A stretch of DNA of 29,012 bases from Candidatus Zhuqueibacterota bacterium (GTDB lineage Bacteria > Zhuqueibacterota > Zhuqueibacteria > Thermofontimicrobiales > Thermofontimicrobiaceae), in assembly GCA_049322915.1 (NCBI GenBank), contig JBMOPW010000005.1, forward strand, positions 1 through 29,012, in the 5' to 3' direction. The translations under genes were made by a program, and so were the position numbers. Below are positions 184-28,451 of this stretch, piece after piece; position 1 is the stretch's first letter, and every line of letters begins with the position of its first letter. The notes under the pieces are model-generated. The model was not told the DNA's origin and made no database searches. It worked only from the letters and a program-made list of their open reading frames with translations.

Positions 184-1431
184 CTATTTCACCAGTATCG
201 CTCCGTACTTGCACCAGCGCACGCACTGGGGATCGCCGGCGCACAGGTCGCAGATGACCGGGAATCCCTGATCATCAAAATGGATCACCTGGAACGGGCA
301 CACCTCCGCGCACACGCGGCACCGGGTACAGCGCTCCGGATCCAGCGCGATGTAGCCTTTTTCGTGGATGAACAGCGCGCCGGGCTGGCACGACTTGATG
401 CATTTTTCGCACAGGGTGCACACATTCACTTTATTCAAAGGCGGCGGCTGATCCACAGGTTTGGAATCGATTCGCAGCCGCGCGCCGTTAATGCCAAATG
501 TTGATTGATGCGTCTGCACACAGACCGTCTCGCAGACGAGGCAGCCGACGCAATTTTTGGAATTGGCCCGCAGCCGAATGGCGGCCTGGCGCGGTGGCTC
601 AAAAATCTCCGCGATGGTTTTGCGGCCATGCACCAGATCGCACAGATCTTCCACCATTTTTTTGGGGTCTTTGGCTTTGGTGACATTGCGGCCGAACACG
701 GTGCCGCTGGCCCCGGCGCGGAGGGCTTCATCCACCAGTTCCAGCGCATCGCGGGGCACATCCGATTTGGCGCCGCCCAGCACCAGCACCGGCACCCGCG
801 ATTCATCCACCAATTGCTTGAATGTCATCACATCCCCGGTGTAGGGAATTTTCAGCGCGTCGGCGCCGATCTCCACAGCAATCCGCGCGGAGGCAATGAG
901 TATCTCGGCGATGTTCACGCCGGTGACCATGCCGCCCACAGCCATGGGCTCGATGATGAGCGGCAGTCCGACTTTGCGGCATTCCTGAGCGAATACGGCG
1001 GACTGCTCCAGATTGATCGCTTCGAATTCATCGCTGTAGCCGATGAAATAGTAAATGGTGATCGCCGAAGCGCCCAACTGCAGCGCATCTCTGGCGCGGG
1101 ATGTGGCCATTTTTCTGAATTTCAGCACCGGCAGCACATTGCTGACATTGGATCCGCCCAGACGCGGCAGGTTCATCCAGTCCGCGCGCACGATCACCGC
1201 CGGTTTGTCTGCGCCCATGAACATTTTGCCCATGCGAAGGACAGTCCCGAACGACATCAGCACGCCGTCCGCGCCGCCGGCAACCACCTTTTCCAGTATG
1301 TTTCGTAAATTGATCACATTGGCAGTGGGATCCGACATCCAGCCGTGATCCGCAGCGACGCAAACCGCTTTTCCATCGGAAGGGTTGAACAGTCGGTTCA
1401 TTCTGGCCGTTTTTCCCGGGTTAGCAGACAT
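184..1431 (-). CDS. Class I (DhnA/FbaB/LsrF-type) aldolase fused to a C-terminal 4x[4Fe-4S] ferredoxin domain
   Basis: N-terminal ~275 aa has the DeoC/FbaB motifs AADHG, GADGVL, PLIIE, GADALKIPY (Schiff-base Lys), VLVLGG and FGRNV. The C-terminus has 16 Cys in four groups (CVGCLVCETVC, CTLCEKCIKSC, CTRCRVCAEVCP, CDLCAGDPQCVRWC), as in DmsB/CooF/HydN-type ferredoxins. Confidence 0.9.
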   Translation of the reverse strand: MSANPGKTARMNRLFNPSDGKAVCVAADHGWMSDPTANVINLRNILEKVVAGGADGVLMSFGTVLRMGKMFMGADKPAVIVRADWMNLPRLGGSNVSNVLPVLKFRKMATSRARDALQLGASAITIYYFIGYSDEFEAINLEQSAVFAQECRKVGLPLIIEPMAVGGMVTGVNIAEILIASARIAVEIGADALKIPYTGDVMTFKQLVDESRVPVLVLGGAKSDVPRDALELVDEALRAGASGTVFGRNVTKAKDPKKMVEDLCDLVHGRKTIAEIFEPPRQAAIRLRANSKNCVGCLVCETVCVQTHQSTFGINGARLRIDSKPVDQPPPLNKVNVCTLCEKCIKSCQPGALFIHEKGYIALDPERCTRCRVCAEVCPFQVIHFDDQGFPVICDLCAGDPQCVRWCKYGAILVK

Positions 1432-1434
1432 GAT

Positions 1435-2199
1435 TTATCCTCTTCCCTTCTTCAATTGGTGTATCGATTTCAAATAATCCGGTTCCTGCAAGATCTTCTC
1501 CGAAAACATGACCCCTTTCAGTCCCAAATCGCAGAGGGCTTTGAACTCGTCCAGGGTCAGGAGCGAATCCGCCCGCGCAATGACAGGCACGGTGGACCAG
1601 CCGGCAATGAGCGAAAGGACGTCGCGACGGCACACCGGCACAATCATCGCATCAGCGCCGGCCTCCATCATGAACGACACGCCCAGTTTGATGGTATCTT
1701 CAAAATTCACCTCGCTCACCTTGGGGCCGATGGGCCGAATATCCACAAAAACTGGCAGCGCTAACTTGTAACTCTGCCGCAGCAGATGGGAAATCGAGCG
1801 AATATTGGTGGCTTCGAATTCATCACTGTAGCCCATCAACAGCGTGGCCACAGCCGCCGAAGCGCCCAACGCCATGGCATCGCCGGCGCTGGAGATTTCA
1901 ATCCGCCAGACATCGGTGACCGGCAGGCAGAAATCAGCGTCGCGGTAAGCGTTGGTCCAATCCACGCGCACCATGCCGGCCGCGCGATTTTTGCCGCACA
2001 GTTCTTCCGAGAGATGCTCCATTTGGCCGGGATTCACAATGACGCCGTCAAAATCGGCGCAGCATGAATGAAGCACCGCTCGCAAATCCTCCGCCTGCGG
2101 CGGAGCGCCAATGCTGGAGGCAATCGTCGTATCCAGCAGCAGGGAGCGCTGCTGGAGAATATCGTTGATTCGAATCGCTTTGCCAATGTGTGTCTGCAT
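1435..2199 (-). CDS. Class I aldolase-like protein, probably catalytically inactive paralog of the downstream aldolase
   Basis: Shares VRxDWxN, LGASA and GYSDEFEAxN with the 415 aa neighbour. Has GADAMIVPV in place of GADALKIPY and lacks DHG and GRN. RBS-like AGAGG upstream; ends 3 bp before the next start. Confidence 0.8.
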   Translation of the reverse strand: MQTHIGKAIRINDILQQRSLLLDTTIASSIGAPPQAEDLRAVLHSCCADFDGVIVNPGQMEHLSEELCGKNRAAGMVRVDWTNAYRDADFCLPVTDVWRIEISSAGDAMALGASAAVATLLMGYSDEFEATNIRSISHLLRQSYKLALPVFVDIRPIGPKVSEVNFEDTIKLGVSFMMEAGADAMIVPVCRRDVLSLIAGWSTVPVIARADSLLTLDEFKALCDLGLKGVMFSEKILQEPDYLKSIHQLKKGRG

Positions 2200-2302
2200 A
2201 GTTTCCTCTTTTTTTTATCCGCCGATGGAGACTGAACCGCATCGCGGCCGGGGCGGATTTGTGTTTTTGTGCTGAATCAACTTGCTATGATGGGATTGTG
2301 AT

Positions 2303-5300
2303 TCACTTTTCCAGTCGCAGATTCAACCAGCTTCCGCTCTGCGAAAGATTTGGCAGCCAGTCCTGAGTTCGGAGCACCAGCCGCAATTCCTTCACACCGG
2401 ACACCGGCGCAGAAAAGCTCTGGGGTTCCGACCGCGCATTCAACGGCCGGCTGACGAAAATTTCTTTATCATCGCCGTACACGGCGAATTGCATTTTGCT
2501 GCCATTGCCGGAGCGAACCGCAGCAGCCAGCATGGGATTCATATCAATGGTCAGCGCGCCGGACAGGGTGCGCCACGAACCGTCCAGCGTGTAAATCAAC
2601 TCCGAATTGGGGATCACGCCGATGCCTTTGTCCGCGCCCGCTTTCAGCGAGCGTCCCCAGTAATTGCGATCCTTTTCTGCCAGGCCGGTCCACTGATCGA
2701 CCTGATTCGGTCTGAAATCGCTCAGGTAGACAGGCGATCCGGCAGCGTCGGTCAGGGATTTCTCCACCACCCGACGCGGCACAATGGAGCCGCGAACCGC
2801 GTCATCGGCGCTCCACTGACTGGCTGAATCCAACTGCCAGTTGCGGTCGAAAAAACCGCACAGGAGCGGAGTCCCATCCACGGTCAGATTGCCCTGGTGA
2901 AAATTAATGCCAACCGTCCGTTCATCAAAAATGACATAATCGAATTCTGCGCCGATGCGTTTGACAATGCCGTCCAGCGCTTGCCAGGAATTACCGGCAT
3001 AGACGAGGACGTACCGGTCGCGATGGGCCGGATTGGGGTAGACAAACGCCGCACCGGTCTGTGCGCCGCTGAATGTCCGGCTGCCGGCTCGAATTGTTTT
3101 CCGGCTGAACTGAATCGGCAGTTCCGCGGCGATCTTTCGGGTCACGCTGTTGCTGTTCGGACCGCCGAATAAAATCAGGTTGTACCGGGACTGATCTTCA
3201 TCCGTCAACTCGGAATCATTTTTCAATCGGCACGGCGCGTGCTGCCAATCCGCCCACTGATCCGAGAAAGATTCCGCTTCCTGCTGGTTGATTCCGGTCT
3301 CTGTTTTCGAACCCTGCGTGCCCACCACGAGCATGAATCCGGAATTGAACACGTCCTGCATGGGGCCGCACACGGCGCTGGTCTTGACGAGTCCCGATGC
3401 TGCGCCCTCCGTCACCAGGGCCCAGTCCGTCGCGCTGCCGTCCGCCTGCACAGTCGCCCGGAATCGGATCGTCCCGGCATCGGAGAGCGCGATATTCAGA
3501 TTTGTCCGATCATCGATGGTGACTGCGATCGGCTGCGCTGGGTCCACCAGTCGGTCATTGAGCCTCACGCTGAATTGAGCCACATTGCCGGTGCGAATGC
3601 GCACTGCCCGGCGGTCGATTATTTCCGCGTCAATGGAGGCAAACGCCCCCTCCAGGCTGAACGAATTGATCTCAATCCACCAGGCGCGGTTGTGCTGCAG
3701 AGAGGCGGTTTTGTAGACCACGCGCGAAGGAAATGCGTCGCGCTTCTTATCCTCGAACCAGTCGTAAATGTCGTTGTCCATCTGCGGATCAAAGCCGCCG
3801 TGCTGTGCCGTCGGATGCTCGATGTAGGTGATGTCGTAGCCCAGCGCTTTCAGCCGGGCGACTATCTTGCGACTCTGCCCGACCGGCACGATGTCATCCA
3901 GCACGCCGTGATTGCACAGCATGGGAAGATTCACGGCATTGTCAGCAAACGACAGAGCGCTTCGCGCCGCAAAGATGTACTGGCGCAGCGGCGAGAACTC
4001 CGTTGTATCGAGCCCGGTCCAGAACGCATATTCCGTTGGTCCCATGATTGGGGCCAGCGCCGCGAATTTGTCAGGGAAGGCCAATCCGACATTCCATGTG
4101 CCGGCGCCTCCCATGGAACCGCCGGTCAGGTAAATCCTTTCCTCGTCGATGGAATACAGGCGCTGCACTTCCTGCAGCACCGTCATCACATCGTTTTCAC
4201 CGATATTCTGATACATGGTATTGCCGCGGCCAAACGGATTGACAAGAATATAACGGCCTTTGTTGGTGGCGTGAGGCATGAATGACGGCAGGAACTGGTT
4301 ATCGTGCCAGGCCGTGAACCCGGGATCGTAGCCGTGCAAATTGATCACCAGCGGGTAGGGCGCGCCCGGCGCATAGGCCTCCGGGACCCAGACTGCGTAC
4401 CCTTGCAGACTGCCCTCGATTTCGGAGTAATAGCCGCGAAGGAAATTGCCTTTTTGCTGCCGGAACGGATTCTCGCCCTGGCTGATTTTTTTGAAGAGCG
4501 AATCAACATCGGCCAGACCGTTTTTCAGAAAATCCGCAAACAGCGCCAGATGGCCTGGCCGCTCCGTCTCCTCAAGGAGCTTCTTCAACGGCACCAGCTT
4601 CACATCCAGACTCGCCAGGTCATTGGGATGAATTCCGGCCGGGCATGCGTTTCGCATGGCCGCAATGTCCTCTTCCAGATTCCGGATATGCACCTGAAGC
4701 GAATCGAACCGATGTTGAATGACCTCCACCTGAGCCGTGGCCTTGAACGATTGGCCATCGGCGCCGGTCACTGCGGCGACGAGTTCGAATTCGCCATCCG
4801 GCCAGCCGGATATATCGATCTTTTTCTCGCACGAAGCATGTTTTTCGGAGATTGACTCGCTGCATTGAAATGCCAGTTTGCAGGACGAGTCGTAGGCCGC
4901 CATGCTCATTGGCAGTGTTGCTCCCGGCGCACCAAAATCCAAACCGTACGCCCCGGCCGACAGCCTCAAATGTCCGGCGTCGCGATAGACCTTTCGATCC
5001 GGCCTGACGAAAACCGTGGGAAAATCATCCGCGTCCTGCGGAGCGATGAGGCCCTGCCTGACCATGCTGTACCAGATCCACCGCGCGTTGTGCTGTAATG
5101 TCTCGCTGGCCGGGCTCGCACGGAGACCGGACGCGATGTGCTGTTGCGCCGCTTCGAATTGGTTATTTTCAGCCTGAATGATGGCGAGATTGTTGTGGAC
5201 GCCAGCCAGATCATCCGGCCCGGCGAGAAACGCCCGCATCTCTGATTCAGCAAGGATCAGATCGCCCTGCAAAAAATGCATCTTCGCCGCAGCCATGTCG

Positions 5301-6046
5301 CTGGATTTTTTTTCGCCCTCAGCCCAGCGCCACAATTTCGACGGTCGGATATTGGTGTAGACATTGAAGTCATCCACGTAGGCGTGCGCGCCCCGGTCCT
5401 GAATCATGCTGATGGAACAGGCCGTATTGGTCGGTTGCAGCGGCTGATAATCCAGCGCAAGGGCATTGTAAAAATGAGGCTCATCCGTTTGCTTGCCCTG
5501 CCAGATTTTCATTTTGAACGAGGCCGGTTTCTCGCCCCGGACGTCGAGCCGCACCCATTGCCACGCACCAAAGACAATTTGCCCCGGTCGCGAGACGAAC
5601 AGCGCCTCCGGCAACGCGCCTACTCTGGCCTTTTTGATGGTGATAACGCCATCGCCGGAGATTTCAAATTTATAATCGCTCCAGCCCTGTTGGCGCACGC
5701 CAACGGTGAACAGAAACTGGCCTCCCTCAACCGGTTTCAGGCGAAACACGGTCGAAAAATCGCGTTTCAGAATCGCCTGGTCCAACTTCGGGATGGCGGC
5801 GAAAATTTGCTGGGTGAGATTGCTGCTATCCAGGGAGACAAACTCGCCATCCCGCACCTGCCAGGCGCCAAAGCCCCACACCTTCATGTCCTGCCATTTT
5901 TCAGCCGAACCGCCGTCGAAATTGTCCGAAAATAGATCCCCTTTTTGAATGAACTGAGTTCTGGCGCTGGACCATGCCAGGCACAGCAGAAGCACTGCTG
6001 TCGTCACAATGAGCGTAAATTTTTCCACAGGCGACGTCCTCTTCAT
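2303..6046 (-). CDS. Secreted multidomain serine hydrolase (beta-sandwich + TPR-like + alpha/beta-hydrolase of S9/esterase type + C-terminal NPCBM/NEW2-like domain)
   Basis: Hydrophobic signal peptide. Hydrolase motifs PLVINLHG, IYLTGGSMGGAG (nucleophile), HGVLDDIVP (Asp) and QHGG (His). C-terminal VYLSD...GIGVIPNS...FAVYGDDKE...VSGVKELRL resembles NPCBM. Start overlaps the ROK stop (ATGA). Confidence 0.8.
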   Translation of the reverse strand: MKRTSPVEKFTLIVTTAVLLLCLAWSSARTQFIQKGDLFSDNFDGGSAEKWQDMKVWGFGAWQVRDGEFVSLDSSNLTQQIFAAIPKLDQAILKRDFSTVFRLKPVEGGQFLFTVGVRQQGWSDYKFEISGDGVITIKKARVGALPEALFVSRPGQIVFGAWQWVRLDVRGEKPASFKMKIWQGKQTDEPHFYNALALDYQPLQPTNTACSISMIQDRGAHAYVDDFNVYTNIRPSKLWRWAEGEKKSSDMAAAKMHFLQGDLILAESEMRAFLAGPDDLAGVHNNLAIIQAENNQFEAAQQHIASGLRASPASETLQHNARWIWYSMVRQGLIAPQDADDFPTVFVRPDRKVYRDAGHLRLSAGAYGLDFGAPGATLPMSMAAYDSSCKLAFQCSESISEKHASCEKKIDISGWPDGEFELVAAVTGADGQSFKATAQVEVIQHRFDSLQVHIRNLEEDIAAMRNACPAGIHPNDLASLDVKLVPLKKLLEETERPGHLALFADFLKNGLADVDSLFKKISQGENPFRQQKGNFLRGYYSEIEGSLQGYAVWVPEAYAPGAPYPLVINLHGYDPGFTAWHDNQFLPSFMPHATNKGRYILVNPFGRGNTMYQNIGENDVMTVLQEVQRLYSIDEERIYLTGGSMGGAGTWNVGLAFPDKFAALAPIMGPTEYAFWTGLDTTEFSPLRQYIFAARSALSFADNAVNLPMLCNHGVLDDIVPVGQSRKIVARLKALGYDITYIEHPTAQHGGFDPQMDNDIYDWFEDKKRDAFPSRVVYKTASLQHNRAWWIEINSFSLEGAFASIDAEIIDRRAVRIRTGNVAQFSVRLNDRLVDPAQPIAVTIDDRTNLNIALSDAGTIRFRATVQADGSATDWALVTEGAASGLVKTSAVCGPMQDVFNSGFMLVVGTQGSKTETGINQQEAESFSDQWADWQHAPCRLKNDSELTDEDQSRYNLILFGGPNSNSVTRKIAAELPIQFSRKTIRAGSRTFSGAQTGAAFVYPNPAHRDRYVLVYAGNSWQALDGIVKRIGAEFDYVIFDERTVGINFHQGNLTVDGTPLLCGFFDRNWQLDSASQWSADDAVRGSIVPRRVVEKSLTDAAGSPVYLSDFRPNQVDQWTGLAEKDRNYWGRSLKAGADKGIGVIPNSELIYTLDGSWRTLSGALTIDMNPMLAAAVRSGNGSKMQFAVYGDDKEIFVSRPLNARSEPQSFSAPVSGVKELRLVLRTQDWLPNLSQSGSWLNLRLEK

Positions 6047-6963
6047 TGAGAAATTCGTTTGAATAGTAATCGGCTGGCGCCCAGCATGGCGCTGGTTTCG
6101 ATGTGCACAGCCGGTTTGATCACAGTGGGCAATTTTTCATTGGCAAAAACCTGTTGCAACGCCGGCCCAAACAGATGAAATGATTGGGCGATCTGTCCGC
6201 CAATCACGAGACACTCGGCCTGAAAATTCCGAACATGCCAGACCAGCATGTGACCCATGATCTGACCGGTCTCCTCGAAGGCAGTCAGCGCCGGGACGTC
6301 CCCGGCGTCGGCGCGCTCGGCGATGAGTTTCACCGTGACATTCTTTTCCTCGCTGCGGAGCAATTTCAGGTATGTGCCGATGATGCCCCGGCTGGAGATT
6401 CGGTCATCCAGGATGCCGTCCTTGTACTTCCGCCCGCCAATCCAGGCCAGCGCCGGAATGCCCGGCCCGGACGCGACAATGTCACCATTGGCGATGAACC
6501 CGGAGCCCATGCCTGTCCCCAACGTCAGACCAATGATGCGGTTGAAGTCCCGGCCTGCGCCGATCCAGGCTTCCCCCAGCACAAAGGCCCAGGCGTCGTT
6601 TTCGAACATGATGGGAAATTCAGGCGTCAGGTTCAGTCCGGCCCGGAATATCTCCGTCAAATTGACGCCGTAAATGGCTTCGTATTTATCCACGCCTTTG
6701 ATCAGACTGACGCCGTTGGCGTAATCGAACGGGCCGGGCATGCCGATGGCAATGCCGGCAATGGCCACCTGCCGCTCGGTTGCTAGATGAAAGGCATTGT
6801 CCAGGACGTGGATGAAGGAATCGATGATGTGCTGAAATTCACCCTTGGAATGGATGGTCGTTCGGTTGACCGAGCCGTGCAGGATGTCACCGGACTCAGC
6901 CACAATGGCCGATTTGACTGAACTGCCCCCGACATCCAGGGCAATGGCGAAACGGTCGTTCAT
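6043..6963 (-). CDS. ROK family sugar kinase
   Basis: Motifs IALDVGGS, GIAIGMPGP, FENDA and LTLGTGMGSG. No N-terminal HTH and no CxCG zinc motif. The ATG at 6963 (MNDRFAIALD) is preferred over the TTG at 7023 because it sits just before the phosphate-1 motif. Confidence 0.88.
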   Translation of the reverse strand: MNDRFAIALDVGGSSVKSAIVAESGDILHGSVNRTTIHSKGEFQHIIDSFIHVLDNAFHLATERQVAIAGIAIGMPGPFDYANGVSLIKGVDKYEAIYGVNLTEIFRAGLNLTPEFPIMFENDAWAFVLGEAWIGAGRDFNRIIGLTLGTGMGSGFIANGDIVASGPGIPALAWIGGRKYKDGILDDRISSRGIIGTYLKLLRSEEKNVTVKLIAERADAGDVPALTAFEETGQIMGHMLVWHVRNFQAECLVIGGQIAQSFHLFGPALQQVFANEKLPTVIKPAVHIETSAMLGASRLLFKRISQ

Positions 6964-7045
6964 TGTTTCATTTTCTCTTATTGACAGATGGGACGAATTT
7001 AGTACCTGACAAATATTTTTCAAACTTTTTTTGGCATAATATTTT

Positions 7046-7238: not shown

Positions 7239-7955
7239 TCATTCCTTCGGTGAAAATAGAAATTTCGCATACCCATAGGCGATGGCTTCGCTGATGATGG
7301 TGCGAACGCCATCGCCGTAGCGCCACCAGCGCCTGGCGTTGTAATCCAGATCCGATGCTGCGATGATGCCCACTTTGATCTGTTCGCCCAGCGCCCGTTC
7401 GAACAGCAATCGGCTCCGTCGCGCGTGGGTTCCCAGTGACATAAGATTGATCGCTGCGACCGATTGGCCGGATTGCTGCAACCACACTTTCAGCGCCAGC
7501 CCGGTCTCATAGGTTCTGTCCCGGACAACGTACGGCGCAGGCACCGGCGCCACCTGTTCCGGTTTCAATCCAAGTCTGATCAACGTCGCCGCACCGATGA
7601 CGGCAAAGTTATCGTACTCGGTCAAATACGAACCCTTTTCCACCGGCTCCCCGGTCACGACCAGCAGCCGGTAGTTATTGGCCAGAAATTCAGCCTTTGC
7701 GATCTCGAAGACATAGTCCGGCACCCAGCCTTCCACGACCAGTATTTCGCTTTTCACCGGCTGGTCGGGCGCCAGAAAGGGATGAATGGTGAACAGGAAA
7801 AAAACGGTCAGGCCGAATAAGGTGATCAGTAAAAACAGCCAGCCGTAAATGGTCAGACCCCAGCGCTGCTTGCGCGCCAGCATTCCGAATAAAGCCATGA
7901 TGCTGTCACTTTCCGATTTTAGTAGGCGATTACCAGACCCCGGCGCTCGCGGCAT
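7239..7955 (-). CDS. YdcF/ElyC/SanA (DUF218) family protein
   Basis: One N-terminal TM helix followed by LVVEGW, LVVTG, DRTYETG, THARRSRLLF and a final ISEAIAYGY, typical of DUF218. The true start may be ~19 codons downstream (MALFG). Confidence 0.8.
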   Translation of the reverse strand: MPRAPGSGNRLLKSESDSIMALFGMLARKQRWGLTIYGWLFLLITLFGLTVFFLFTIHPFLAPDQPVKSEILVVEGWVPDYVFEIAKAEFLANNYRLLVVTGEPVEKGSYLTEYDNFAVIGAATLIRLGLKPEQVAPVPAPYVVRDRTYETGLALKVWLQQSGQSVAAINLMSLGTHARRSRLLFERALGEQIKVGIIAASDLDYNARRWWRYGDGVRTIISEAIAYGYAKFLFSPKE

Positions 7956-8696
7956 TTACGGATTTGGAAATATCCGAAGGCCGCCATTGAACCGGGCAAT
8001 CAGCTCGAATTCATTGCTGAAAAAATCAGTGTTGGTGAAATGGGCGGGGGCAGTCGCTTCAACGTCCGTGCCCTTGTATTCGGTCACGGCCAGGGCTGAC
8101 CACCGGTCCGGATTCAACTGATGGAACAGCCATTTGCCGGGACGGGAATCGACGGCGCGGATCGAATGCTGATAGAGATATTCGAAGACCGCGCGCACAC
8201 CCACGCTACAGACTTTTTTCCTGCGGCCCATATCAAAGAATTTGAGTCGCCGCTGATGGTCGTAACCCAACAGCGTGTTGATGGCAATGTCCAGAATCTG
8301 GCCGAGATCGTATCCCTCGCCCACCAGATCCATCACCGCGCTGCGCATGGTCTCCACGTGCGACGCCGTCAAATCAATCACCCGCAACCGATAAATGGAC
8401 AGATCAGCCAGACAGTATTCCCGCACATGTTTTGTCGTTGCCCGCGGAAGTTCCACGGAAAACGTGTTCGATTCATCCAGAAACAGCATGGCGTGAGTGT
8501 CCTGCCAGTTGGACTTTTTCCCGAACAGGTTCCGTTGCTGCCATTGAATTCCGGCATGAACCAGCGCCGACCAGAATTGCCACCAGGCGTGTTTCCCGAT
8601 CCACGTGACGACATCCCCCGGTTGGATGACTTCGAGTATCGCCTGGCACGCGCGATTCACGAGGTCGCGGTCTTTATTATTTCCTGACATGCTCAT
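7956..8696 (-). CDS. Permuted papain-like NlpC/P60 amidase/peptidase (YaeF/YiiX-like)
   Basis: Motif order QPGDVV...THAMLF...GYD...VCS puts His before the catalytic Cys (circular permutation). Strong RBS AGGAGGTG upstream. Confidence 0.72.
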   Translation of the reverse strand: MSMSGNNKDRDLVNRACQAILEVIQPGDVVTWIGKHAWWQFWSALVHAGIQWQQRNLFGKKSNWQDTHAMLFLDESNTFSVELPRATTKHVREYCLADLSIYRLRVIDLTASHVETMRSAVMDLVGEGYDLGQILDIAINTLLGYDHQRRLKFFDMGRRKKVCSVGVRAVFEYLYQHSIRAVDSRPGKWLFHQLNPDRWSALAVTEYKGTDVEATAPAHFTNTDFFSNEFELIARFNGGLRIFPNP

Positions 8697-11130: not shown

Positions 11131-11197
11131 GTCAATTTCCGGTTTGTGTCCAATGATATCTATTACTCTGCTATGAATTATTTCAATGCCTGAAGTG

Positions 11198-15911: not shown

Positions 15912-15950
15912 ATCAATTTCCTTTTTTCATTCAAAAAAAATCGTAGCTGT

Positions 15951-15966
15951 TTCGTCAATTGTCGAA
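15951..15966. promoter_or_regulatory. Candidate operator palindrome upstream of the methyltransferase operon
   Basis: TTCGTCAATTGTCGAA, a 16 bp palindrome with one mismatched pair, ~40 bp upstream of the ATG at 15911. Confidence 0.3.
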
Positions 15967-16032
15967 CACATTGACTGCCAATATGAATGACCAGTAAAAA
16001 TTTTGGCGCCTATATTATTATTGGACATACGC

Positions 16033-16060
16033 GTAGTGGACGGTCGCGACCGTCCACTAC
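16033..16060. repeat. GTAG-type REP-like perfect palindrome
   Basis: GTAGTGGACGGTCGCGACCGTCCACTAC is its own reverse complement (28 bp) with GTAG/CTAC ends. Confidence 0.8.
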
Positions 16061-16218
16061 ACATACAAAAAAGTATCGAATTTATTGCACATGATTTCAA
16101 CTGGTCATTCATCTTACCAACTGACCGTTCGCCTATTCCGGGATATTTGTCCCAACCATTACCGGCGCCGGATGAATATCCAGCGCGATCCTGTGGCTGA
16201 TCCGTCACAAAAAATCAT

Positions 16219-16262: not shown

Positions 16263-16721
16263 TCATGTTTCCTGCCAGACCGGGATATGGATGCGAATCA
16301 GTTTATCAGAAGACTTTTCGGGATACTCCTCAAACACCGCCACGGCCGGATCAAACGGGACTGGTGCGTCAGGCAGCCACACTGTGAAGATGTGCCGATA
16401 GGTCTCGCCTATCGCATCCACAGGGCATTCGAAGACGGCGAACTGACCGCCTGACACAGTGCGCTTCTCCAACCCATCGGGCACGTGCGTTTCGTCGGGT
16501 ACCATCATGCCTGCCAAGTAGTCTGTCACGTCTTCTTTGTCGGTTGGGAAATTGACCCCGAAGTAGTGCTTTCCGATTGAAATCAACTCAATCTCCTGCG
16601 CACGCGACTCGAACTGCTTCCAGATACCGACAAACAAATCTGGAGTTTCTGAACCGCGCTTGATTTGGGCTTGAACACCCAAAACGGTGAAGGGTCCACG
16701 CTTTGTCATTTCTGGATGCAT
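16263..16721 (-). CDS. GyrI-like / Cass2 small-molecule binding protein
   Basis: FTVLG...IWKQF...DYLAG...VPDGL...GGQFAVF...YRHIFTVWLP...FEEY...IHIPV pattern; RBS GAGGA. Confidence 0.85.
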   Translation of the reverse strand: MHPEMTKRGPFTVLGVQAQIKRGSETPDLFVGIWKQFESRAQEIELISIGKHYFGVNFPTDKEDVTDYLAGMMVPDETHVPDGLEKRTVSGGQFAVFECPVDAIGETYRHIFTVWLPDAPVPFDPAVAVFEEYPEKSSDKLIRIHIPVWQET

Positions 16722-21892: not shown

Positions 21893-22867
21893 TCATTTCA
21901 CCACGGTCGCGGATGCCGTTTTCACAACATCCAGCAGATCGAACACGCGGGCGTAATAATGATCCCTGATCTCGAATTTGGTCTTGCCGCTGCCTTTGAA
22001 CTCATTGCCCAGCGCGTCGATGAATTTGTGCAGCCGCTTCTGGTGAAGCCCGAACGCTGCCTGCACCGGATCGGTGATGATGCCGGCGAAGGACGTGACG
22101 ATCGCCATCACGGCCATGATCGAGCCGGTGGCCGCAGCAATGAGTCCCAGCGACGCCGACGCCGGAAAAATGCTGTACCACACCGAGCCGAGCGTGGAAC
22201 CCAGGAGGAAATTGGAGATAGCCGTTTTCTGGGCGATGGCCGTCGCAGCAGCGCTGCCGGTTGCCATGGCGCCCGGCGTCATCTGCCTGAACAGCGCCGC
22301 CCCAACGGCGATGGTGATGATGCTCCCGGCGAGGTCAGCGGCGGCCGTGCGGCTGGTCGCATACTCGCGCAGATTATTCTCCAGCGCCGACCGGAATTTG
22401 GGGTCGGATGATTTCTGTCTGATCGTGGAAAAGTGCGTCACAAACAGACTCTCGACGTCCGGTTGATTGAGAATCTCGTCCAGCAGCGCATCTTTGTCCG
22501 AGCGCCGACTTCCCTGCTCGAAGGGTATTTCCAGAAGCTCAGTATAAATCAGCCAATTCACCTCCTTCTGAACATTGGTCTCAAAACCGCGCGGGAGCTT
22601 TTTAACGCCTCTGGACATTCCTCCCAGGCCGGCAAGTTTGAACATCCCTCCGATGACATGAAATCCGGTTCGCACGACCGACCACGTGATGTTGATCGGT
22701 CCTTTGACAATGTCCATGCCGAGCGCTTTTCGGTGCAGCTTTATCGCCCCGCTGACAGAGAAGTAATTTTTCACAAATGCGGGCACTTTTTTATGGCGGG
22801 ATTTCACATAGGTTTCAATTGCCTGTTGAACACCCGCAGCGACGCGTCGTTCGTCTGCTTCAGCCAT
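21893..22867 (-). CDS. DUF6635-like membrane-associated protein
   Basis: Recognised pattern YxxSRxxxVPAFVxxxFS...LHRKALGxD...LIYTELL...YATSRTAAAD...DPVQAAFGLHQKRL; RBS GGAGGAAGG. Confidence 0.65.
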   Translation of the reverse strand: MAEADERRVAAGVQQAIETYVKSRHKKVPAFVKNYFSVSGAIKLHRKALGMDIVKGPINITWSVVRTGFHVIGGMFKLAGLGGMSRGVKKLPRGFETNVQKEVNWLIYTELLEIPFEQGSRRSDKDALLDEILNQPDVESLFVTHFSTIRQKSSDPKFRSALENNLREYATSRTAAADLAGSIITIAVGAALFRQMTPGAMATGSAAATAIAQKTAISNFLLGSTLGSVWYSIFPASASLGLIAAATGSIMAVMAIVTSFAGIITDPVQAAFGLHQKRLHKFIDALGNEFKGSGKTKFEIRDHYYARVFDLLDVVKTASATVVK

Positions 22868-22889
22868 GTTTTTCCTTCCTCCGATTGAT

Positions 22890-23642
22890 TCATTTCTTTG
22901 AGATATCCCATTTTGTTCGCAGTCGGGTCAATTCCTTTTCATCCCTGTCGCGGACGATCTGGTGAACGAATACGAGCTGTTCACTGCTCCCGACCTGCGC
23001 GGTTCGCGAAAGCACGCGGTCTCCATAGAAAGCTTCGCCGCGAAAAGCCGCTTCAATTTCGGACAGGCGATATTTTTTCAGAACATCGTGCGGAACCGCC
23101 TCGATCCCCCACTCGATGGACGTCACGTGATTCACATGATTGTTCAAATCCAGGTCATGCATCCTCGCGCGGAACGGGAGTTCGGCGTCGGCGTGGCTGA
23201 TTTCGGGCAACGGCTCAAAGGGATCCGGAATCATCCGCGTGGGATTGCGGGGGTATTCCGGCAGATGCAGGTCCGGCAGCACTGGTTTTTTCGTCTTCAG
23301 GTCGAGTAAAATCCAGGAGCTTGTTCCCAGCACCATGGTGGTTTCCCTGTCGTCCACAATTTGAAATTCGCGAAGAGAGAAAAATTTCTCCTGTGTGGAA
23401 GGCCACGTATGGATCGTGATCTGCTGGCCCCAGGACGGATAGTGAAAAATCCTGATGTGGTAGCGCGACAAAACCCAGGTTAAATTGCGAGCGAACAGGT
23501 CGACTACCGACGCGCCCAACCGACCGGCATGGTCGCTGGCCACCTCCTGCAGAAAATTGAATAGGGTCGACAATTTTATTCTTGCATGGGAGTCGACTTC
23601 ATACGTGCGAACGGTAAATTTTCTCGTGTAAATGTTATCCAA
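22890..23642 (-). CDS. Acyl-ACP thioesterase (FatA/FatB-like double hotdog)
   Basis: Motifs VRTYEVD, LQEVASDH, WVLSR, TWP, REF, SSWILLD and DLDLNNHVNH. TTG start preceded by GGAGG. Confidence 0.92.
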   Translation of the reverse strand: MDNIYTRKFTVRTYEVDSHARIKLSTLFNFLQEVASDHAGRLGASVVDLFARNLTWVLSRYHIRIFHYPSWGQQITIHTWPSTQEKFFSLREFQIVDDRETTMVLGTSSWILLDLKTKKPVLPDLHLPEYPRNPTRMIPDPFEPLPEISHADAELPFRARMHDLDLNNHVNHVTSIEWGIEAVPHDVLKKYRLSEIEAAFRGEAFYGDRVLSRTAQVGSSEQLVFVHQIVRDRDEKELTRLRTKWDISKK

Positions 23643-23876: not shown

Positions 23877-25139
23877 TCAGGCCGACTCCATCCGAACGCC
23901 GTCCACAACTTCCATGGCCATGCGCGTCCAGTCCCACAATCGCTGCGGCTGATACTGCACCGTGCTGATGTCTTTCAGAATGATCTCCACCGCGCAGCCT
24001 TCCAGGATTTTCAAATCCGCGATCAACGCCTTCCGCGCCGCATCCGGATTCCATGCGTCGCTGGCGAGGATCGCCGGATTGGGCTTGTACGAGATGACAT
24101 AATCGTCCCCGATGTTTTCCACCGCTCTGGCCAGATTTGCCCAGGGGCTGATGGATATCTTCCGCAGATTAGGCACGGATTTGAGCATGTCAATTTTATG
24201 ATGAAGCGGCTCGCAGCAGCCGTAGTAATTCAGGCCGAACCGCTCCAGCCAGCGCAACTCATAACGCAGGGCAAATTCTTCGTGCATGGCCGGGGACACA
24301 TCGCAAAAAATCTGCGCTGTGGCACACCCCCACTGATCCACGGTTCTCACAGTGTCGGGCGTGAAATTGTGACCAGGCAACTCGTCGGTGTAGGCCAGTC
24401 CGCCGGATCCAACCCGGTAATTGCCCCGGGCACAGGATAACAGATTCAGCGCGACGTATTGATCCAGCCGCGACAGGTACGCCGCGACCAGCCGATCCAT
24501 GGCCAGATGCACCAGAGCCGGGCGAGTGATCATGTCCATCAGCGCGGACTGCACATCCCACCAGCGAATCAATTCATCCCACGGTGCGAACCATTGATGA
24601 AACACACCGCGTTTTTCAATTTTCAGAATATCGCCGAAGCACTCGGCCAGCACCTGATAATTTTCCTCGCTGGCAGCCTCATCGTGATGGATGACCGGCA
24701 TCTTTATCTTGTCAACGTCCGATTCGTCCCGAATCTGTTGATGAAATCCCCGCGAATAAATGTTATTCATTTCATCCACTTTGAGTATATCGACATCTTC
24801 GCTGATTCCAAAACCGGAGTCGCGGATCACCAGCGGCGAGTAAAACACATCCTCCATCACCAAATCGAACGGCATGCGCCGCCAGAGATAAATTGTGCGG
24901 CGAAGTTCCTGTTCCGCCCAGCGGCAATGGGGATGCTCACACAGCAGCGTCAGTTCGCCGTTCACATCCATTTCATGCCAGGGAAACTCGTTTATCCAGA
25001 CCAGCGGCCGCGTTTTCTCACGCCCATTGAGTCGGCGCCATAGATCTGCTGTCTGCTTCTGCGCCGGCAGCGCCGCGAATTCGGCCACCTGCTCTGCCAG
25101 TGGCCGCAAAATCGATTTGTCGTTTTCAAACATGGTCAT
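23877..25139 (-). CDS. URO-D/MtaA-fold (methyltransferase-like) protein, YGCCEP subtype
   Basis: ALMDMITRPALVH, VSPAMHEEF, YYGCCEPL, KISISPW and SYKPNP follow the URO-D/methylcobamide:CoM methyltransferase barrel pattern. Start overlaps the upstream stop (ATGA). Confidence 0.7.
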   Translation of the reverse strand: MTMFENDKSILRPLAEQVAEFAALPAQKQTADLWRRLNGREKTRPLVWINEFPWHEMDVNGELTLLCEHPHCRWAEQELRRTIYLWRRMPFDLVMEDVFYSPLVIRDSGFGISEDVDILKVDEMNNIYSRGFHQQIRDESDVDKIKMPVIHHDEAASEENYQVLAECFGDILKIEKRGVFHQWFAPWDELIRWWDVQSALMDMITRPALVHLAMDRLVAAYLSRLDQYVALNLLSCARGNYRVGSGGLAYTDELPGHNFTPDTVRTVDQWGCATAQIFCDVSPAMHEEFALRYELRWLERFGLNYYGCCEPLHHKIDMLKSVPNLRKISISPWANLARAVENIGDDYVISYKPNPAILASDAWNPDAARKALIADLKILEGCAVEIILKDISTVQYQPQRLWDWTRMAMEVVDGVRMESA

Positions 25140-25771
25140 TGAGCATTCTTTCCTTGCTTCGTCCGGAAAACCAGGGCCAAGTCGGTCACTTCTCGGAGAA
25201 TTTTTAACTCGATGGAACGGAATCTGGTTTCATTCTGAAAAGACGCTAACAGTTCCTGAATCGCGGCGATTCTGGCATCGTCCATGCCGCATTCTTTCAG
25301 GGAGCGACCGCAGGCCTCTTTCTCACAAATCCGCGGTTTCTCTGTCCGGGGCGGCGACTGTTTTTCCACGGCCGTTGCGACCGCAAGCAACGCGGCTGGC
25401 TTGATCACCGTCGGATCCACGCCGAATTGTCCGATCAACCGATCGACTATTTCTTCAACCTGAGATAAAAATGGGTCTGCCAGTTCCCCATCAAAATGCC
25501 GTTCAATGATGACCTTCAGTCGCTCGATCTGCGGAGCGAGCAGGCGCCGGTCATTCGCCGGCTGGCCCAGGCACTCAGCAGCAGAGCGACACCAGGCTGC
25601 GCAGGCCAGGTTCAATCCGGGATTGCGGCTTTCTCTCCCGCACCCGGGGCAGAGTCGCGTCGGCTCGTCCTTCCAGAACTCGATCTCGGTCCCGCAATGA
25701 GCGCATTGCACGAAGGAGATATCCTCCGGCGTCCAGAATTGCTGATTTTGTCCGGGACAGCGAATTGGCAT
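25136..25771 (-). CDS. Cys-rich (Zn-ribbon/Fe-S) protein with degenerate HD-like helical domain
   Basis: CPGQ...CAHC...EFWKD...CPGC...CAAWC...C gives 8 Cys in the first ~70 aa. C-terminal VIKPAALLAVA sits where HD proteins have AAxLHD. Confidence 0.7.
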   Translation of the reverse strand: MPIRCPGQNQQFWTPEDISFVQCAHCGTEIEFWKDEPTRLCPGCGRESRNPGLNLACAAWCRSAAECLGQPANDRRLLAPQIERLKVIIERHFDGELADPFLSQVEEIVDRLIGQFGVDPTVIKPAALLAVATAVEKQSPPRTEKPRICEKEACGRSLKECGMDDARIAAIQELLASFQNETRFRSIELKILREVTDLALVFRTKQGKNAQ

Positions 25772-25807
25772 ACAGGCACCGTCTGGGTTGAAAAAACATT
25801 CATCGAA

Positions 25808-26413
25808 TCACTGGATCAAACGCGCGCACACCCGCGCAGCAAGAGTCGCGACATCTTCGGCGTGAAAAACCCGCCTGAGACCGGCATCGAAAAGGATGTC
25901 CGCCGTCGCCGGGAATTCTTCATCGCCACGCCGGTAAACGAGGGTGACGGCGATATTCCCGAAGCAGCGTATCCGCGCTCCGAAATCGCCGACCGGGTAC
26001 GGCTCCCAATCGAATCGATCCATGTTTCGTCTCAGCCCGTCCATGTCGTTCCCGAATTTTCCAATGAGCGGCCGAATGGCGCGCGCGACAAAGGGTTCCC
26101 AATAAAACTGACCGCCGCTGATATTACGAAACGATATCAACTCTGTCGAACCGGACAGGGGCGCATCGCACAAAAGGCTGTGCAGAATCAGGATTCTATC
26201 GACGTTCGGCGCCGGCAGGCCGGTTTGAGCCAATGTCAATTCGAATCGGACCGTATCCAGTTGCACCGTCTCTCCGAAGGCGCGGAACGTGATGACGCCG
26301 GATGCGTCCGGCCGGGGCAGGCCAGCATTTTGGCAGCGACGATTCACGTCAATCCCGGCCAGCCCGGCGACTGCGAGCCGAATGGCCTCCTGTTGCGCTG
26401 TTTGATGCGACAT
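25808..26413 (-). CDS. DUF3786 domain protein
   Basis: Motifs ILILHSL, LISFRNISGG.FY..F, GD and GDEEFPA.A.ILFD...EDV; the family is commonly found beside corrinoid activators. Confidence 0.85.
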   Translation of the reverse strand: MSHQTAQQEAIRLAVAGLAGIDVNRRCQNAGLPRPDASGVITFRAFGETVQLDTVRFELTLAQTGLPAPNVDRILILHSLLCDAPLSGSTELISFRNISGGQFYWEPFVARAIRPLIGKFGNDMDGLRRNMDRFDWEPYPVGDFGARIRCFGNIAVTLVYRRGDEEFPATADILFDAGLRRVFHAEDVATLAARVCARLIQ

Positions 26414-26510
26414 AGCAATTTACCAGTGATATTTCAACGTGTAACGTGTAAAAAAAAGCGCATGGCATCGATGGAGCCGGATTCTTTGTCCCGCAGCCGG
26501 GACGCCGCCT

Positions 26511-28451
26511 TCATTGCGCTGCCCCGGGCGTTGACCGCCCGCTGCTGTTCTTCAATAATCGCCCAACTGATGGAAACCGACTTCCATCCGTGTGCGGCAG
26601 AAACAGTGCGCCGGTGTATTGATTCATGTATTCCGGATCTGCATTCAAATCCAGATAGGTGATTCGCCGCGCCAGCTCGGCCTGTTTGCGCCGGTGTTCC
26701 TCGGAAATCAGAACCATGTACGCGCCAACCAGCGACGCATTGCCGATGAAAACATACTTTTCCTGAGACACGTCCGGAATCAGCCCGATGACAATTGCTT
26801 TTTCGAGATCGATGTTTCGACCGAATCCGCCGGCGATGTAGATTTTGTTGATGTCGGTGAAATGCAGTCCCACCTGGTCCAGCATCAGCGAACAGGCGCA
26901 GTAGATGGCTGCTTTGGCGCGGAGAATATTTTCAATGTCCATCTCTGAAATGACAATCGCCTGGCCGTGTTCGGTGTGCTGAGCCGGCGCCAGCACGTAA
27001 TGCGCCCGCCGGCCATGAATCCGGATGAACTCCGAAGGCTTGGTTCGGTTGAATTTTCCGGCGGCGTCGAGCCAGCCTGTGAGGAATAAATTTGCAATCA
27101 GGGAAATCATGCCGGAACCGCAAATGCCCCGGGCTCTGGTATCGCCGATGACCGAGCACGCAGCTGCGCCGGTGACGGGATCGATGTCCACGCGCTCGAT
27201 GGCGCCGGTTGCCGCGCGCATGCCGCAATCGATGCCACCGCCTTCAAAGGCCGGGCCGGCCGAGCAGGCGCAGCCCATCAAAAAATCGTGATTGCCCAGA
27301 ACCACCTCGCCGTTTGTCCCCACATCGATGAACAGGTTCACCTCCTCGGATCCGGCCGCCAGGTCCGTGCACAGCAGCCCGGCCGTGATATCGCCGCCCA
27401 CGTAACTGCCCACGCACGGCGACAGATACACCGGCGCGAACGCATTCATACGCAATTCCAATTCGCCGGCGACGAAGTCCGGAGCGTGGAGCAATGTCGG
27501 CGTGTAGGGCGCCAATCGGATGTATTCGGGATTCAGTCCCAGCAGCAAGTGCATCATCGTGGTATTGCCGGCGATCACGGCCGCGCAGATTTCCTCCAAG
27601 TCCACTTTGCCATAGCGCGCGGCCGCTTCGATCAGATCATTCACGGTTGACACGACCCGCGAGCGCAACTCCTCCAGCCGCTCGGCTGTCCTGGCGTAAT
27701 CGATGCGGCTGATCACGTCCAGCCCGCAGTTGATCTGACCGTTGTAGTCGGTGTGGGTCGCTAAAATTTTGCCGGTCGCGAGATGGGCGAGTTGCACGGC
27801 GATGGTCGTCGTCCCGATGTCCACGGCGACGCCGAAATGGCGCTGGGTCTCGTCGCCAACCTCGATCCGGATGATGCGCGCCGCGCCGCTGCTTTTGGCG
27901 AGCGTCACGGTGATGCGCCCGGCGTCGGCCCGCACTGTTTGCGCGACAGCTCGACAGACAGAGGCCGGAATGGATAGCGCGGCCTCGCCAATGTGCGGTT
28001 TCAGGCAACGGCTGATCCGATCCATATCCGATAGTCCATCGCCCGACTGCGGCGCCGGCGCCTGAATCGCCAGCTTCATTGCCGCGGGCTGCAATTGCCA
28101 TTGTTGCGGCAGCAACTCGGGTTGTACCAGATGGATGGAAAGGCCATCATCACTGAATTTGCCGTTGCTTCTGGATAGCTGTTCCGGAATTTCGCACACC
28201 AGTGGCTCATCGCCCGCGCGGGTCCGGCAGGCCAGAACATATCCCAGGAAGATGGCCGTCGCCGACAGCAGTCCCAGACTTTCGGTGGACACTTTGCCGC
28301 TGAGAATCCGCACAACGCAGCGTCCGCAGGTGCCTTTTCCGCCGCACGGAGTGTCGAAGTCGATCCGGGCGGAGCGGAACGCGTCTATCAGCTCAGCGCC
28401 AGGGGCCACGTCGATTTCTTTTTCAGTCGGGAGGATTTTGATGATGGGCAT
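26511..28451 (-). CDS. Reductive activator of corrinoid proteins (RACo/RamA-type ASKHA ATPase, DUF4445) with N-terminal [2Fe-2S] domain
   Basis: CGGKGTCGRC...LAC ([2Fe-2S]) followed by AVDIGTTT, GLDVISRI, GNTTM, YVGGDI, IDVGTNGE, CSAGPAFEG, GICGSG, AGGFG and GNASL. Confidence 0.95.
   Translation of the reverse strand: MPIIKILPTEKEIDVAPGAELIDAFRSARIDFDTPCGGKGTCGRCVVRILSGKVSTESLGLLSATAIFLGYVLACRTRAGDEPLVCEIPEQLSRSNGKFSDDGLSIHLVQPELLPQQWQLQPAAMKLAIQAPAPQSGDGLSDMDRISRCLKPHIGEAALSIPASVCRAVAQTVRADAGRITVTLAKSSGAARIIRIEVGDETQRHFGVAVDIGTTTIAVQLAHLATGKILATHTDYNGQINCGLDVISRIDYARTAERLEELRSRVVSTVNDLIEAAARYGKVDLEEICAAVIAGNTTMMHLLLGLNPEYIRLAPYTPTLLHAPDFVAGELELRMNAFAPVYLSPCVGSYVGGDITAGLLCTDLAAGSEEVNLFIDVGTNGEVVLGNHDFLMGCACSAGPAFEGGGIDCGMRAATGAIERVDIDPVTGAAACSVIGDTRARGICGSGMISLIANLFLTGWLDAAGKFNRTKPSEFIRIHGRRAHYVLAPAQHTEHGQAIVISEMDIENILRAKAAIYCACSLMLDQVGLHFTDINKIYIAGGFGRNIDLEKAIVIGLIPDVSQEKYVFIGNASLVGAYMVLISEEHRRKQAELARRITYLDLNADPEYMNQYTGALFLPHTDGSRFPSVGRLLKNSSGRSTPGAAQ

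Follow-up and report, generated by a model that had tools for sequence, protein, structure and literature searches.

We analysed a window of 29,012 nucleotides (29 kb) that makes up the whole of contig C5 (JBMOPW010000005.1) in the genome of a Candidatus Zhuqueibacterota bacterium (G000; 6.25 Mb, 96% complete), and found that it is a composite of several units and not a single system. It combines the end of an acs cluster, an unrelated lipid gene pair and a mannoside-type utilisation region that contains genes for MtaA-Trx, a URO-D-barrel protein fused to thioredoxin-fold domains, and a CobW-type GTPase. We read positions 184-21391 as an alpha-mannoside-type glycan region carrying half of a corrinoid methyl-transfer pathway, in which sugars would be demethylated through corrinoid carriers encoded on another contig (C34) and through MtaA-Trx; this reading has about an even chance of being right. 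Of the functions considered, the oxygen-free removal of methyl groups from methylated mannose-type sugars has the best support, and we regard it as equally likely to prove right or wrong. All 20 long open reading frames (ORFs) of the window lie on the minus strand, and the first-pass annotation of this DNA had joined a set of co-oriented genes within 28 kb into a possible sugar route. Every co-oriented gene that it listed was present on that strand in Pfam and NCBIfam scans, and the link between sugar and corrinoid genes held up in this lineage, but the activase RACo and DUF3786 fell out of the route, and no link to it was detected for an acyl-ACP thioesterase/DUF6635 pair or for two genes of 246 and 238 amino acids (aa). 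That annotation had itself cautioned that unrelated genes interrupt the cluster and that the linkage may be partly coincidental.

For comparison we used 41 genomes of the KSB1 class, namely G000 and 40 relatives, among which G001 belongs to the same genus as G000. The flanks of MtaA-Trx were compared in 14 relatives for which these loci were fetched. The glycan region contains the following genes:

17090..21391, minus strand: secreted 1433-aa enzyme of the glycoside hydrolase family 38 (GH38) alpha-mannosidases (Pfam, signal-peptide-like N terminus)
14289..15911, minus strand: MtaA-Trx, a URO-D barrel with two CxxC thioredoxin-fold domains (Pfam URO-D, 216 bits; Thioredoxin_3)
13396..14310, minus strand: CobW/COG0523-type GTPase (Pfam cobW and CobW_C)
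11411..13282, minus strand: 623-aa cytoplasmic protein, putative carbohydrate-active enzyme (predicted fold)
9340..11130, minus strand: 596-aa protein with a type-I phosphomannose-isomerase (PMI)-like cupin at residues 246-481 (PDB 1qwr)
6043..7023, minus strand: ROK-family sugar kinase (Pfam ROK, 86 bits)
2303..6046, minus strand: secreted 1247-aa serine esterase, S9/polyhydroxybutyrate (PHB)-depolymerase-like, with a C-terminal NPCBM domain (Pfam, NCBIfam, signal-peptide-like N terminus)
1435..2199, minus strand: degenerate aldolase-like paralogue (weak NCBIfam match, E = 6.6e-10; 29% identical to the neighbouring aldolase)
184..1431, minus strand: DeoC-type class-I (DhnA/MJ0400-type) aldolase fused to a ferredoxin-like 2x[4Fe-4S] domain (Pfam DeoC, 89 bits; Fer4 families)

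MtaA-Trx and the CobW-type GTPase form a core pair that is conserved across phyla and tied to corrinoid proteins. Their genes overlap by 22 bases in the window, and CobW adjoined MtaA-Trx in 13 of the 14 fetched relatives. Full-length MtaA-Trx orthologues (E <= 1e-150) were present in 23 of the 41 genomes, and one further copy is truncated where its contig stops. When one genome per species was scanned, 80 MtaA-Trx loci were obtained, from KSB1, Victivallales, Planctomycetota, Spirochaetes, Sumerlaeota, Anaerolineae and many Oscillospiraceae, and CobW was adjacent in 57 of them. Among the 52 loci from Firmicutes and Chloroflexi, a B12-binding carrier was found in 22, a PocR-AraC regulator in 22, RACo in 20 and DUF2284 in 10. 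The pair directly adjoined a corrinoid protein gene in three relatives (G039, G029 and G005) and lay 3.5 kb from one in G012.

MtaA-Trx cleared the Pfam cut-off for the URO-D superfamily (216 versus 23.9 bits) and missed the cut-offs of TIGR01463 (MtaA/CmuA; 167.9 versus 235.4 bits) and MtaA_Meth (146 versus 400). The closest sequence and structure relatives of its barrel are MtaA/MtbA/MtsA of Methanosarcina: in the match to PDB 4ay7 (MtaA; E = 1.8e-24) both zinc-motif cysteines are kept and the histidine is replaced by phenylalanine. Phe228, Cys230, Cys310 and the first CxxC were invariant in 74 of 74 family members. MtaA-Trx thus differs from the Methanosarcina enzymes in its sub-threshold TIGR01463 score (168 versus 235), in the phenylalanine that stands for the histidine of HxC and in the fusion, across its family, of one or two CxxC thioredoxin-fold domains, and we know of no coenzyme M pathway in this lineage. 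We propose that MtaA-Trx is a methylcorrinoid:thiol-type methyltransferase, as its cysteine-type metal site suggests a thiol-directed step rather than O-demethylation. We infer that the CobW-type GTPase is its dedicated partner and delivers the metal.

The metal motifs split the family into two types: MtaA-Trx was the only one of 21 aligned G000 URO-D proteins to carry the cysteine of the second motif, and 13 of the 20 others had HxCG without it. Kountz and Balskus (PMC10418091) assign His-Cys-Cys motifs to S- and Se-methyltransferases and loss of the cysteine to O-methyltransferases, and because of this rule we read the HxCG-only paralogues as oxygen-directed. The likelier O-demethylases are therefore URO-D paralogues encoded outside the window, to judge from their motifs. 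Against 24 Pfam URO-D genes and a Pfam-negative family represented by a 420-aa protein of the window, G000 has just two small corrinoid proteins and a single MtaA-like gene. Eleven of the 24 have a gene for a glycoside hydrolase or a sugar transporter no more than ~5 kb away, the neighbours including GH38 (at three loci), GH89, GH2, GH32, GH1 and GxGYxYP, and the GH38 gene on contig C14 is flanked by two URO-D genes. With 10 GH38N matches in 6.25 Mb, a random point falls within 5 kb of one ~2% of the time. Alternatively, these paralogues could have nothing to do with corrinoids and act on sugar acids, as decarboxylases that need no cofactor or as TIM-barrel enzymes of another kind, with the corrinoid proteins serving, for example, B12 sensing with PocR. 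UROD itself is a decarboxylase, most G000 paralogues have no corrinoid gene nearby and there are two carriers for 24 paralogues. We nevertheless consider this explanation highly improbable: URO-D genes sit directly beside corrinoid protein genes in G014, G005 and G028, the HxCG motif kept by most of the other aligned paralogues is that of the methyltransferase branch, and both G000 carriers show the complete domain architecture of methyltransferase carriers, B12-binding_2 plus B12-binding.

As the first-pass annotation had cautioned, there is no B12-binding domain in the window, and all 12 PF02310 matches of the genome lie on other contigs. It had also proposed looking for a corrinoid protein elsewhere in the genome. 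The only two stand-alone corrinoid proteins of G000, of 209 and 220 aa with DxHxxG motifs (DLHDIG and DLHNIG), are both encoded inside a GH38/TonB-receptor locus on C34. The gene order there is PocR-AraC, carrier, HAD-like protein, TonB receptor, 609-aa protein, PorV-like protein, carrier, GH38, DUF4185 and two ATP-binding cassette (ABC) exporters. Just past this locus come genes for a PfkB kinase and a URO-D-fold protein (C34:635279-636481), these two ~10 kb away, and another gene for DUF4185. At the opposite end, 5 kb beyond the PocR-AraC regulator, there is a second GH38. G001 and G018 share this gene order throughout, G010 shares part of it, and G026 has it except for the inner carrier gene.

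In G026, the two halves of the proposed system are joined. The C34-type locus runs on into MtaB, a secreted GH38, MtaA-Trx, CobW, URO-D, the NPCBM-esterase and a split MtaA/Trx, so that window-type genes and the C34-type locus make a single 39-kb cluster on the minus strand. The MtaB gene (C23:225141-226625; L121:241-1725; Pfam 531 bits) stands mid-cluster, between the two halves. The split MtaA/Trx is a paralogue of MtaA-Trx whose MtaA and Trx parts are naturally encoded by separate genes; a selenoprotein reading of it was rejected, as the in-frame TGA falls in the linker and is followed by a new Met start. In G005, one strand carries genes for a xylose-isomerase-like protein, a 672-aa protein, GH38, a MocA oxidoreductase, MtaA-Trx and CobW, and continues with URO-D, URO-D, a carrier, a beta-helix protein and URO-D. 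The order in G039 is LacI, MtaA-Trx, CobW, carrier and GH92 mannosidase in place of GH38. With GH38 in several genomes and GH92 in G039, two unrelated alpha-mannosidase families therefore neighbour the MtaA-Trx module. In G034, MtaA-Trx and CobW are followed by URO-D, a sugar transporter, GH2 and a second sugar transporter, and a Blautia-like locus combines the module with a URO-D gene and a sugar-type ABC importer. The synteny comparison suggested in the first-pass annotation showed sugar and corrinoid genes linked in G026, G005 and G039, sugar and URO-D genes linked in G034, and no sugar link in 7 of the 14 relatives. Neither of the two conditions that the annotation had set for its own refutation, a genome encoding no corrinoid protein and sugar and corrinoid genes unlinked in other genomes, was borne out. 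The sugar link of MtaA-Trx/CobW is real in this lineage, though partial.

The position of MtaB in G026 also fits another source of methyl groups, namely methanol from methyl-esterified glycans: the esterase would free methanol, a methanol:corrinoid methyltransferase would load the carrier and MtaA-Trx would act in the role of MtaA. The large secreted esterase with its carbohydrate-binding module is conserved beside methyltransferases in G000, G001 and G026, and the secreted GH38 bears a pectate-lyase-like beta-helix. However, MtaB was not found in G000 (96% complete), the esterase matches S9/PHB-depolymerase-type enzymes and not pectin methylesterases, and the 24 URO-D paralogues would be left unexplained; we therefore think that this route is very unlikely.

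The sugar-related genes of the window are themselves conserved in part. The 1433-aa enzyme contains the GH38 catalytic domain (Glyco_hydro_38N, PF01074, 104.7 bits; GH38C2, 31 bits), an N-terminal NosD/beta-helix region and a Por_Secre_tail sorting domain of the type IX secretion system (T9SS), and its orthologues adjoin MtaA-Trx in G001, G010 and G026. Downstream of CobW, gaps of 113 bases to the 623-aa gene and a further 280 bases to the isomerase-like gene confirm the earlier observation that the methyltransferase-CobW genes lead directly into these two; the 623-aa gene follows MtaA-Trx-CobW, and the PMI-like gene follows the 623-aa gene, in G001, G010 and G018. The 623-aa family is small (119 representatives among 1.84 billion proteins). 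No Pfam match, including GxGYxYP, was found in 35 of 35 members scanned, and a PDB sequence search returned one chance-level match only. Its AlphaFold2 model had a mean predicted local distance difference test (pLDDT) score of 92, and the top fold match was BT_2193 (3sgg, which we take to represent the GxGYxYP family; E = 8.8e-10, template modelling (TM) scores 0.51/0.60), followed by polysaccharide deacetylases. The model suggests a GxGYxYP-like fold with a NodB/GH57-like barrel, and hence a putative carbohydrate-active enzyme. In the 596-aa protein, residues 246-481 matched the mannose-6-phosphate isomerase of B. subtilis (1qwr) with E = 8.7e-10, and the match to TIGR00218 (manA) was weak (E = 4.7e-6, under cut-off). 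The ROK gene, whose product scored under the cut-off of every specific NCBIfam kinase model, overlaps the esterase gene by 4 bases. An esterase orthologue in G026 (44% identical) lies between the URO-D gene and the split MtaA/Trx paralogue, and a further copy (45% identical; locus L050) stands beside a URO-D gene. The aldolase at 184-1431 matched MJ0400 (PDB 2qjg) with E = 1.6e-35, and the aldolase pair (184-2199) is retained in G001.

Taken together, these genes suggest a route of six steps, each of which is stated here as a proposal. The secreted GH38/beta-helix enzyme and the secreted NPCBM-esterase would attack an external glycan, and the fragments would be imported and trimmed through the GH38/DUF4185/TonB-receptor locus of C34. 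A URO-D-fold methyltransferase with a His-Cys-only motif would then move the methyl group from the methylated sugar to Co(I) of a C34 corrinoid protein. MtaA-Trx, metallated by the CobW-type GTPase, would hand the methyl group to a thiol-type acceptor, and carrier that had become oxidised would be re-reduced by a RACo. The freed hexose would be phosphorylated by the ROK kinase, isomerised by the PMI-like enzyme and cleaved by the aldolases. The gene identities, folds, metal-motif pattern and conserved neighbourhoods are observed; we infer all of the chemical steps, the substrate, the acceptor and the pairing of a RACo with the carriers. We name methyl-mannose as the substrate only as a guess, prompted by the neighbouring mannosidase and PMI genes.

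Several observations weigh against this route. The His-x-Cys...Cys zinc motif of MtaA is incomplete in MtaA-Trx, its histidine being phenylalanine in all 74 members, and position 232 is divided among 25 His, 25 Asp and 24 Asn, so zinc binding by MtaA-Trx is only putative. The corrinoid proteins and the likely O-type methyltransferases are encoded on contigs other than the window. The sugar link is absent at MtaA-Trx/CobW in G002 (on a 5.8-kb contig), G008, G009, G013, G017, G024 and G029, and the five relatives with a mannosidase in the MtaA-Trx flank (G001, G010, G026, G005 and G039, out of 14) are kin and thus non-independent. In the loci examined from Victivallales, Spirochaetes, Sumerlaeota and Anaerolineae, the pair lies among unrelated housekeeping genes. 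Some adjacency by chance is expected in KSB1 genomes, which are rich in glycoside hydrolases. Operon limits were set by gene spacing alone, as promoter and terminator scans were at the level of shuffled sequence (12 versus 12.1; 16 versus 20.8). A homocysteine S-methyltransferase gene adjoins the carrier in G029 and a second RACo gene in G000, and for this reason the step after the carrier may not be MtaA-Trx. We know of no methylated sugar that is a substrate of any URO-D-fold enzyme.

Several of these points are shared by the main rival, in which MtaA-Trx/CobW is a general module for methyl-sulfur, methyl-selenium or methionine-linked transfer (taking methyl groups from methylated thiols, for example, or feeding a split methionine synthase) and its sugar context is incidental in genomes dense in carbohydrate-active enzymes. 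The cysteine-type metal site and the first CxxC, invariant in 74 of 74 members, would suit such a module, as would the nearest studied relatives, which methylate thiols or selenide (PMC10418091). Seven of nine annotated loci outside KSB1 had no sugar context, the two exceptions being L085, with a sugar-type ABC transporter and URO-D, and L108, with an FGGY sugar kinase. In G029 the pair is followed by a corrinoid protein, a homocysteine S-methyltransferase and a MetH-activation-like gene, and 9 of the 14 relatives have no mannosidase in the flank. By contrast, chance does not readily account for the merging of clusters in G026 and G005, or for an operon in G034 that includes sugar transporters and GH2. 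Two unrelated mannosidase families adjoin the pair, the only two corrinoid proteins of G000 sit in a GH38 locus, and the Blautia-like locus couples the pair with a URO-D gene and a sugar importer. We give the general module a real but clearly minor chance of being the whole explanation. It can also be partly true alongside sugar demethylation, with MtaA-Trx as a shared downstream step.

The proposed sugar demethylation resembles known systems in part. Anaerobic corrinoid O-demethylases of acetogens and Desulfitobacterium consist of a methyltransferase I, a corrinoid protein, a methyltransferase II and an activating enzyme. Like them, G000 has ~210-aa B12-binding carriers with DxHxxG (on C34) and RACo-type activases (two, the one in the window being acs-linked by synteny). 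Its URO-D-superfamily proteins are candidates for the first methyltransferase, in which case many substrate-specific enzymes would share few carriers, as in the known systems. The known enzymes act on aryl methyl ethers, whereas here glycoside hydrolases, a TonB receptor and sugar kinases are present, the components are spread over at least three loci, and the MtaA-like member is fused to thioredoxin-fold domains and has a CobW-type GTPase of its own. No Pterin_bind gene, the mark of a tetrahydrofolate-type second methyltransferase, was found in the window or the C34 locus; the only two matches were MetH and a gene at C34:584537. It is gene context alone (GH38, GH92, PMI-like, ROK) that indicates a sugar as the methyl-ether substrate.

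In marine Bacteroidota, porphyran loci use a cytochrome P450 to demethylate 6-O-methyl-galactose, a reaction that needs O2 and yields formaldehyde. In that route, a sugar demethylase likewise sits inside a polysaccharide utilisation locus and leads a methylated monosaccharide into central metabolism; the route proposed here would differ in being oxygen-free and in transferring the methyl group through cobalt. Type 1 mlp clusters, as defined in PMC10418091, have co-located Mlp2 and Mlp3 and are proposed to use methyl-selenide or methyl-sulfur compounds. The window differs in having one MtaA-like gene with a GTPase and no carrier within 29 kb, and the role proposed there is not glycan breakdown. 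Corrinoid O-demethylases, MtaABC and mlp clusters are thus already known, and what would be new is a corrinoid system in glycan loci, of which our literature searches on corrinoid and cobalamin methyltransferases in sugar and glycan contexts turned up no description.

More broadly, we put forward tentatively, and as more probably wrong than right, that KSB1-like anaerobic glycan degraders run a distributed cobalt-based network of sugar demethylation, in which dozens of URO-D enzymes, each placed in its own glycoside-hydrolase locus, would remove O-methyl groups from different methylated sugars and share one or two carriers. In such a network, one or two shared corrinoid proteins would be unloaded by a single MtaA-Trx with its private GTPase, or by a homocysteine methyltransferase, and the Wood-Ljungdahl pathway, where present, could receive the methyl groups. 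Algal, plant, fungal and bacterial glycans commonly carry methylated sugars, and the only route known to us for demethylation during glycan breakdown needs oxygen. An oxygen-free counterpart of the P450 sugar demethylases would supply a missing piece of the anaerobic turnover of carbon in anoxic sediments and guts, and would make polysaccharide decay in anoxic sediments an uncounted source of methylated thiols or methionine. Many unannotated URO-D-fold genes, and the MtaA-thioredoxin/CobW pair with its wide distribution, would also gain a function, and a COG0523 metal-chaperone GTPase would have a rare concrete client.

The genes at the other end of the window belong elsewhere:

26511..28451, minus strand: RACo, an AcsV-like corrinoid reductive activase (Pfam RACo_C_ter, 338 bits; Raco_middle, linker and Fer2)
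25808..26413, minus strand: DUF3786 protein (Pfam, 120 bits)
25136..25771, minus strand: 211-aa zinc-ribbon protein of the RACo unit (weak zinc-ribbon Pfam matches)
23877..25139, minus strand: 420-aa divergent URO-D/MtaA-fold protein, candidate methyltransferase (predicted fold)

RACo and DUF3786 had been counted as parts of the sugar system, and we found them to be linked to acs instead. The top NCBIfam match of the window RACo is AcsV (NF040756), at full length (span 5-627) and under cut-off (642.8 versus 800 bits). Orthologues of this RACo (43-64% identical) occurred in only six of the 40 relatives (G006, G007, G011, G016, G017 and G024), and the gene directly follows AcsC in all three that have upstream DNA (G016, G017 and G006), the other three being cut by contig ends. 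Acetyl-CoA synthase (ACS) is found in 5 of the 41 genomes (G000, G006, G016, G017 and G024) and DUF3786 in four (G000, G007, G017 and G024), all of which have the window-type RACo; DUF3786 adjoins it in G007 and G024. Given the orthologues behind AcsC and the co-occurrence with acs, RACo and DUF3786 are therefore no evidence for the sugar pathway, and their annotation is corrected here to the acetyl-CoA pathway, in which an AcsV-type RACo would re-reduce the corrinoid iron-sulfur protein. G001 keeps the rest of the window gene order, and window-type RACo, DUF3786 and ACS were not found there.

CooC, CooC, carbon monoxide dehydrogenase (CODH) and ACS/AcsD precede AcsC both in G016 and on contig C33 of G000, where the acs cluster terminates the contig 150 bases past AcsC. 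C5 starts with a two-copy repeat just upstream of RACo. Because C33 ends so soon after AcsC and C5 begins at this repeat, C5 is very probably the continuation of C33, split at the repeat. Positions 23877-28451 are thus probably, on gene order, the tail of the acs cluster with a URO-D-fold gene attached. The order CooC, CooC, CODH, ACS/AcsD, AcsC, RACo in the relatives, together with the AcsV match, is that of a Wood-Ljungdahl acs cluster with AcsV; the differences are the sub-threshold AcsV score (643 versus 800), the split between C33 and C5, and the DUF3786, zinc-ribbon and URO-D-fold genes that follow RACo. In G007 the genes for RACo, DUF3786, the zinc-ribbon protein and the 420-aa protein likewise stand in this order, and the N-terminal third of the zinc-ribbon protein is conserved beside RACo in G016 and G007. 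In the acs cluster of G000 (C33:54600-62369; L125), acetyl-CoA synthase is fused to an AcsD-like CdhD domain (1178 aa), as it is in G016, and a gene for an S-adenosylmethionine-dependent methyltransferase is inserted ahead of AcsC. In G017 (C59:284-6854; L127), a GH92 alpha-mannosidase gene comes directly after the acs-linked RACo, and a member of the 420-aa family (33% identical) lies 1.5 kb further on the opposite strand. G000 has two RACo genes. The second, on C26 (C26:92757-95537; L120:6758-9537), stands directly behind a gene for a stand-alone homocysteine S-methyltransferase domain that looks like part of a split methionine synthase, and RACo genes of this type are found in most relatives.

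The first-pass annotation had reported two URO-D/MtaA-fold proteins, and structure prediction identified the second as the 420-aa protein, whose gene start is overlapped by 4 bases by the end of the zinc-ribbon gene. No match was found in Pfam or in a PDB sequence search, and the family has 4580 homologues at E<=0.001, with 60-65% identity across phyla. The AlphaFold2 model (pLDDT 90) matched UROD and MtaA (4ay7) in Foldseek with probability 1.00 and TM scores of 0.5-0.6. A family member lies near MtaA-Trx in 4 of the 52 Firmicutes/Chloroflexi loci, all four in Firmicutes.

The remaining features of the window are as follows:

21893..23642, minus strand: acyl-ACP thioesterase and DUF6635 pair (Pfam)
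16263..16721, minus strand: Cass2/GyrI-like small-molecule-binding protein (Pfam)
15980..16116, no strand: dispersed repeat of ~137 bp that includes a perfect 28-bp palindrome and lies upstream of MtaA-Trx, between it and the Cass2 gene
7239..8696, minus strand: two genes of 246 and 238 aa with no family match in Pfam or NCBIfam

The Cass2/GyrI-like gene was not seen at the loci of the 14 relatives. Both the thioesterase/DUF6635 pair and the 246- and 238-aa genes are retained, among the fetched loci, in G001 alone. We detected no link of the former to the acs unit or the sugar system, and none of the latter to the sugar/methyl-transfer system. The ~137-bp repeat gave 77 blastn matches genome-wide, with 87-97% identity among the 25 matches listed. 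A 93-aa ORF at 15927-16208, which gave 42 tblastn matches in the genome, was rejected as a gene and is a product of this repeat.

Both ends of C5 are repeats (28452-29012 and 1-127). The final 428 bases have a 95%-identical copy that closes contig C19, and they include a partial small ORF, which we take to resemble a PD-(D/E)XK_3/GxxExxY-type gene. The first 127 bases are the reverse complement of the end of contig C28; an end-to-end join of C5 and C28 was rejected, as the common 127-mer start is a branch in the assembly graph. The G+C content of C5 is 0.55, compared with ~0.48-0.49 in the large contigs of G000. Mis-binning of C5 was set aside on finding the syntenic region on a 122-kb contig of G001, which also bears an orthologue of the C26-type RACo.

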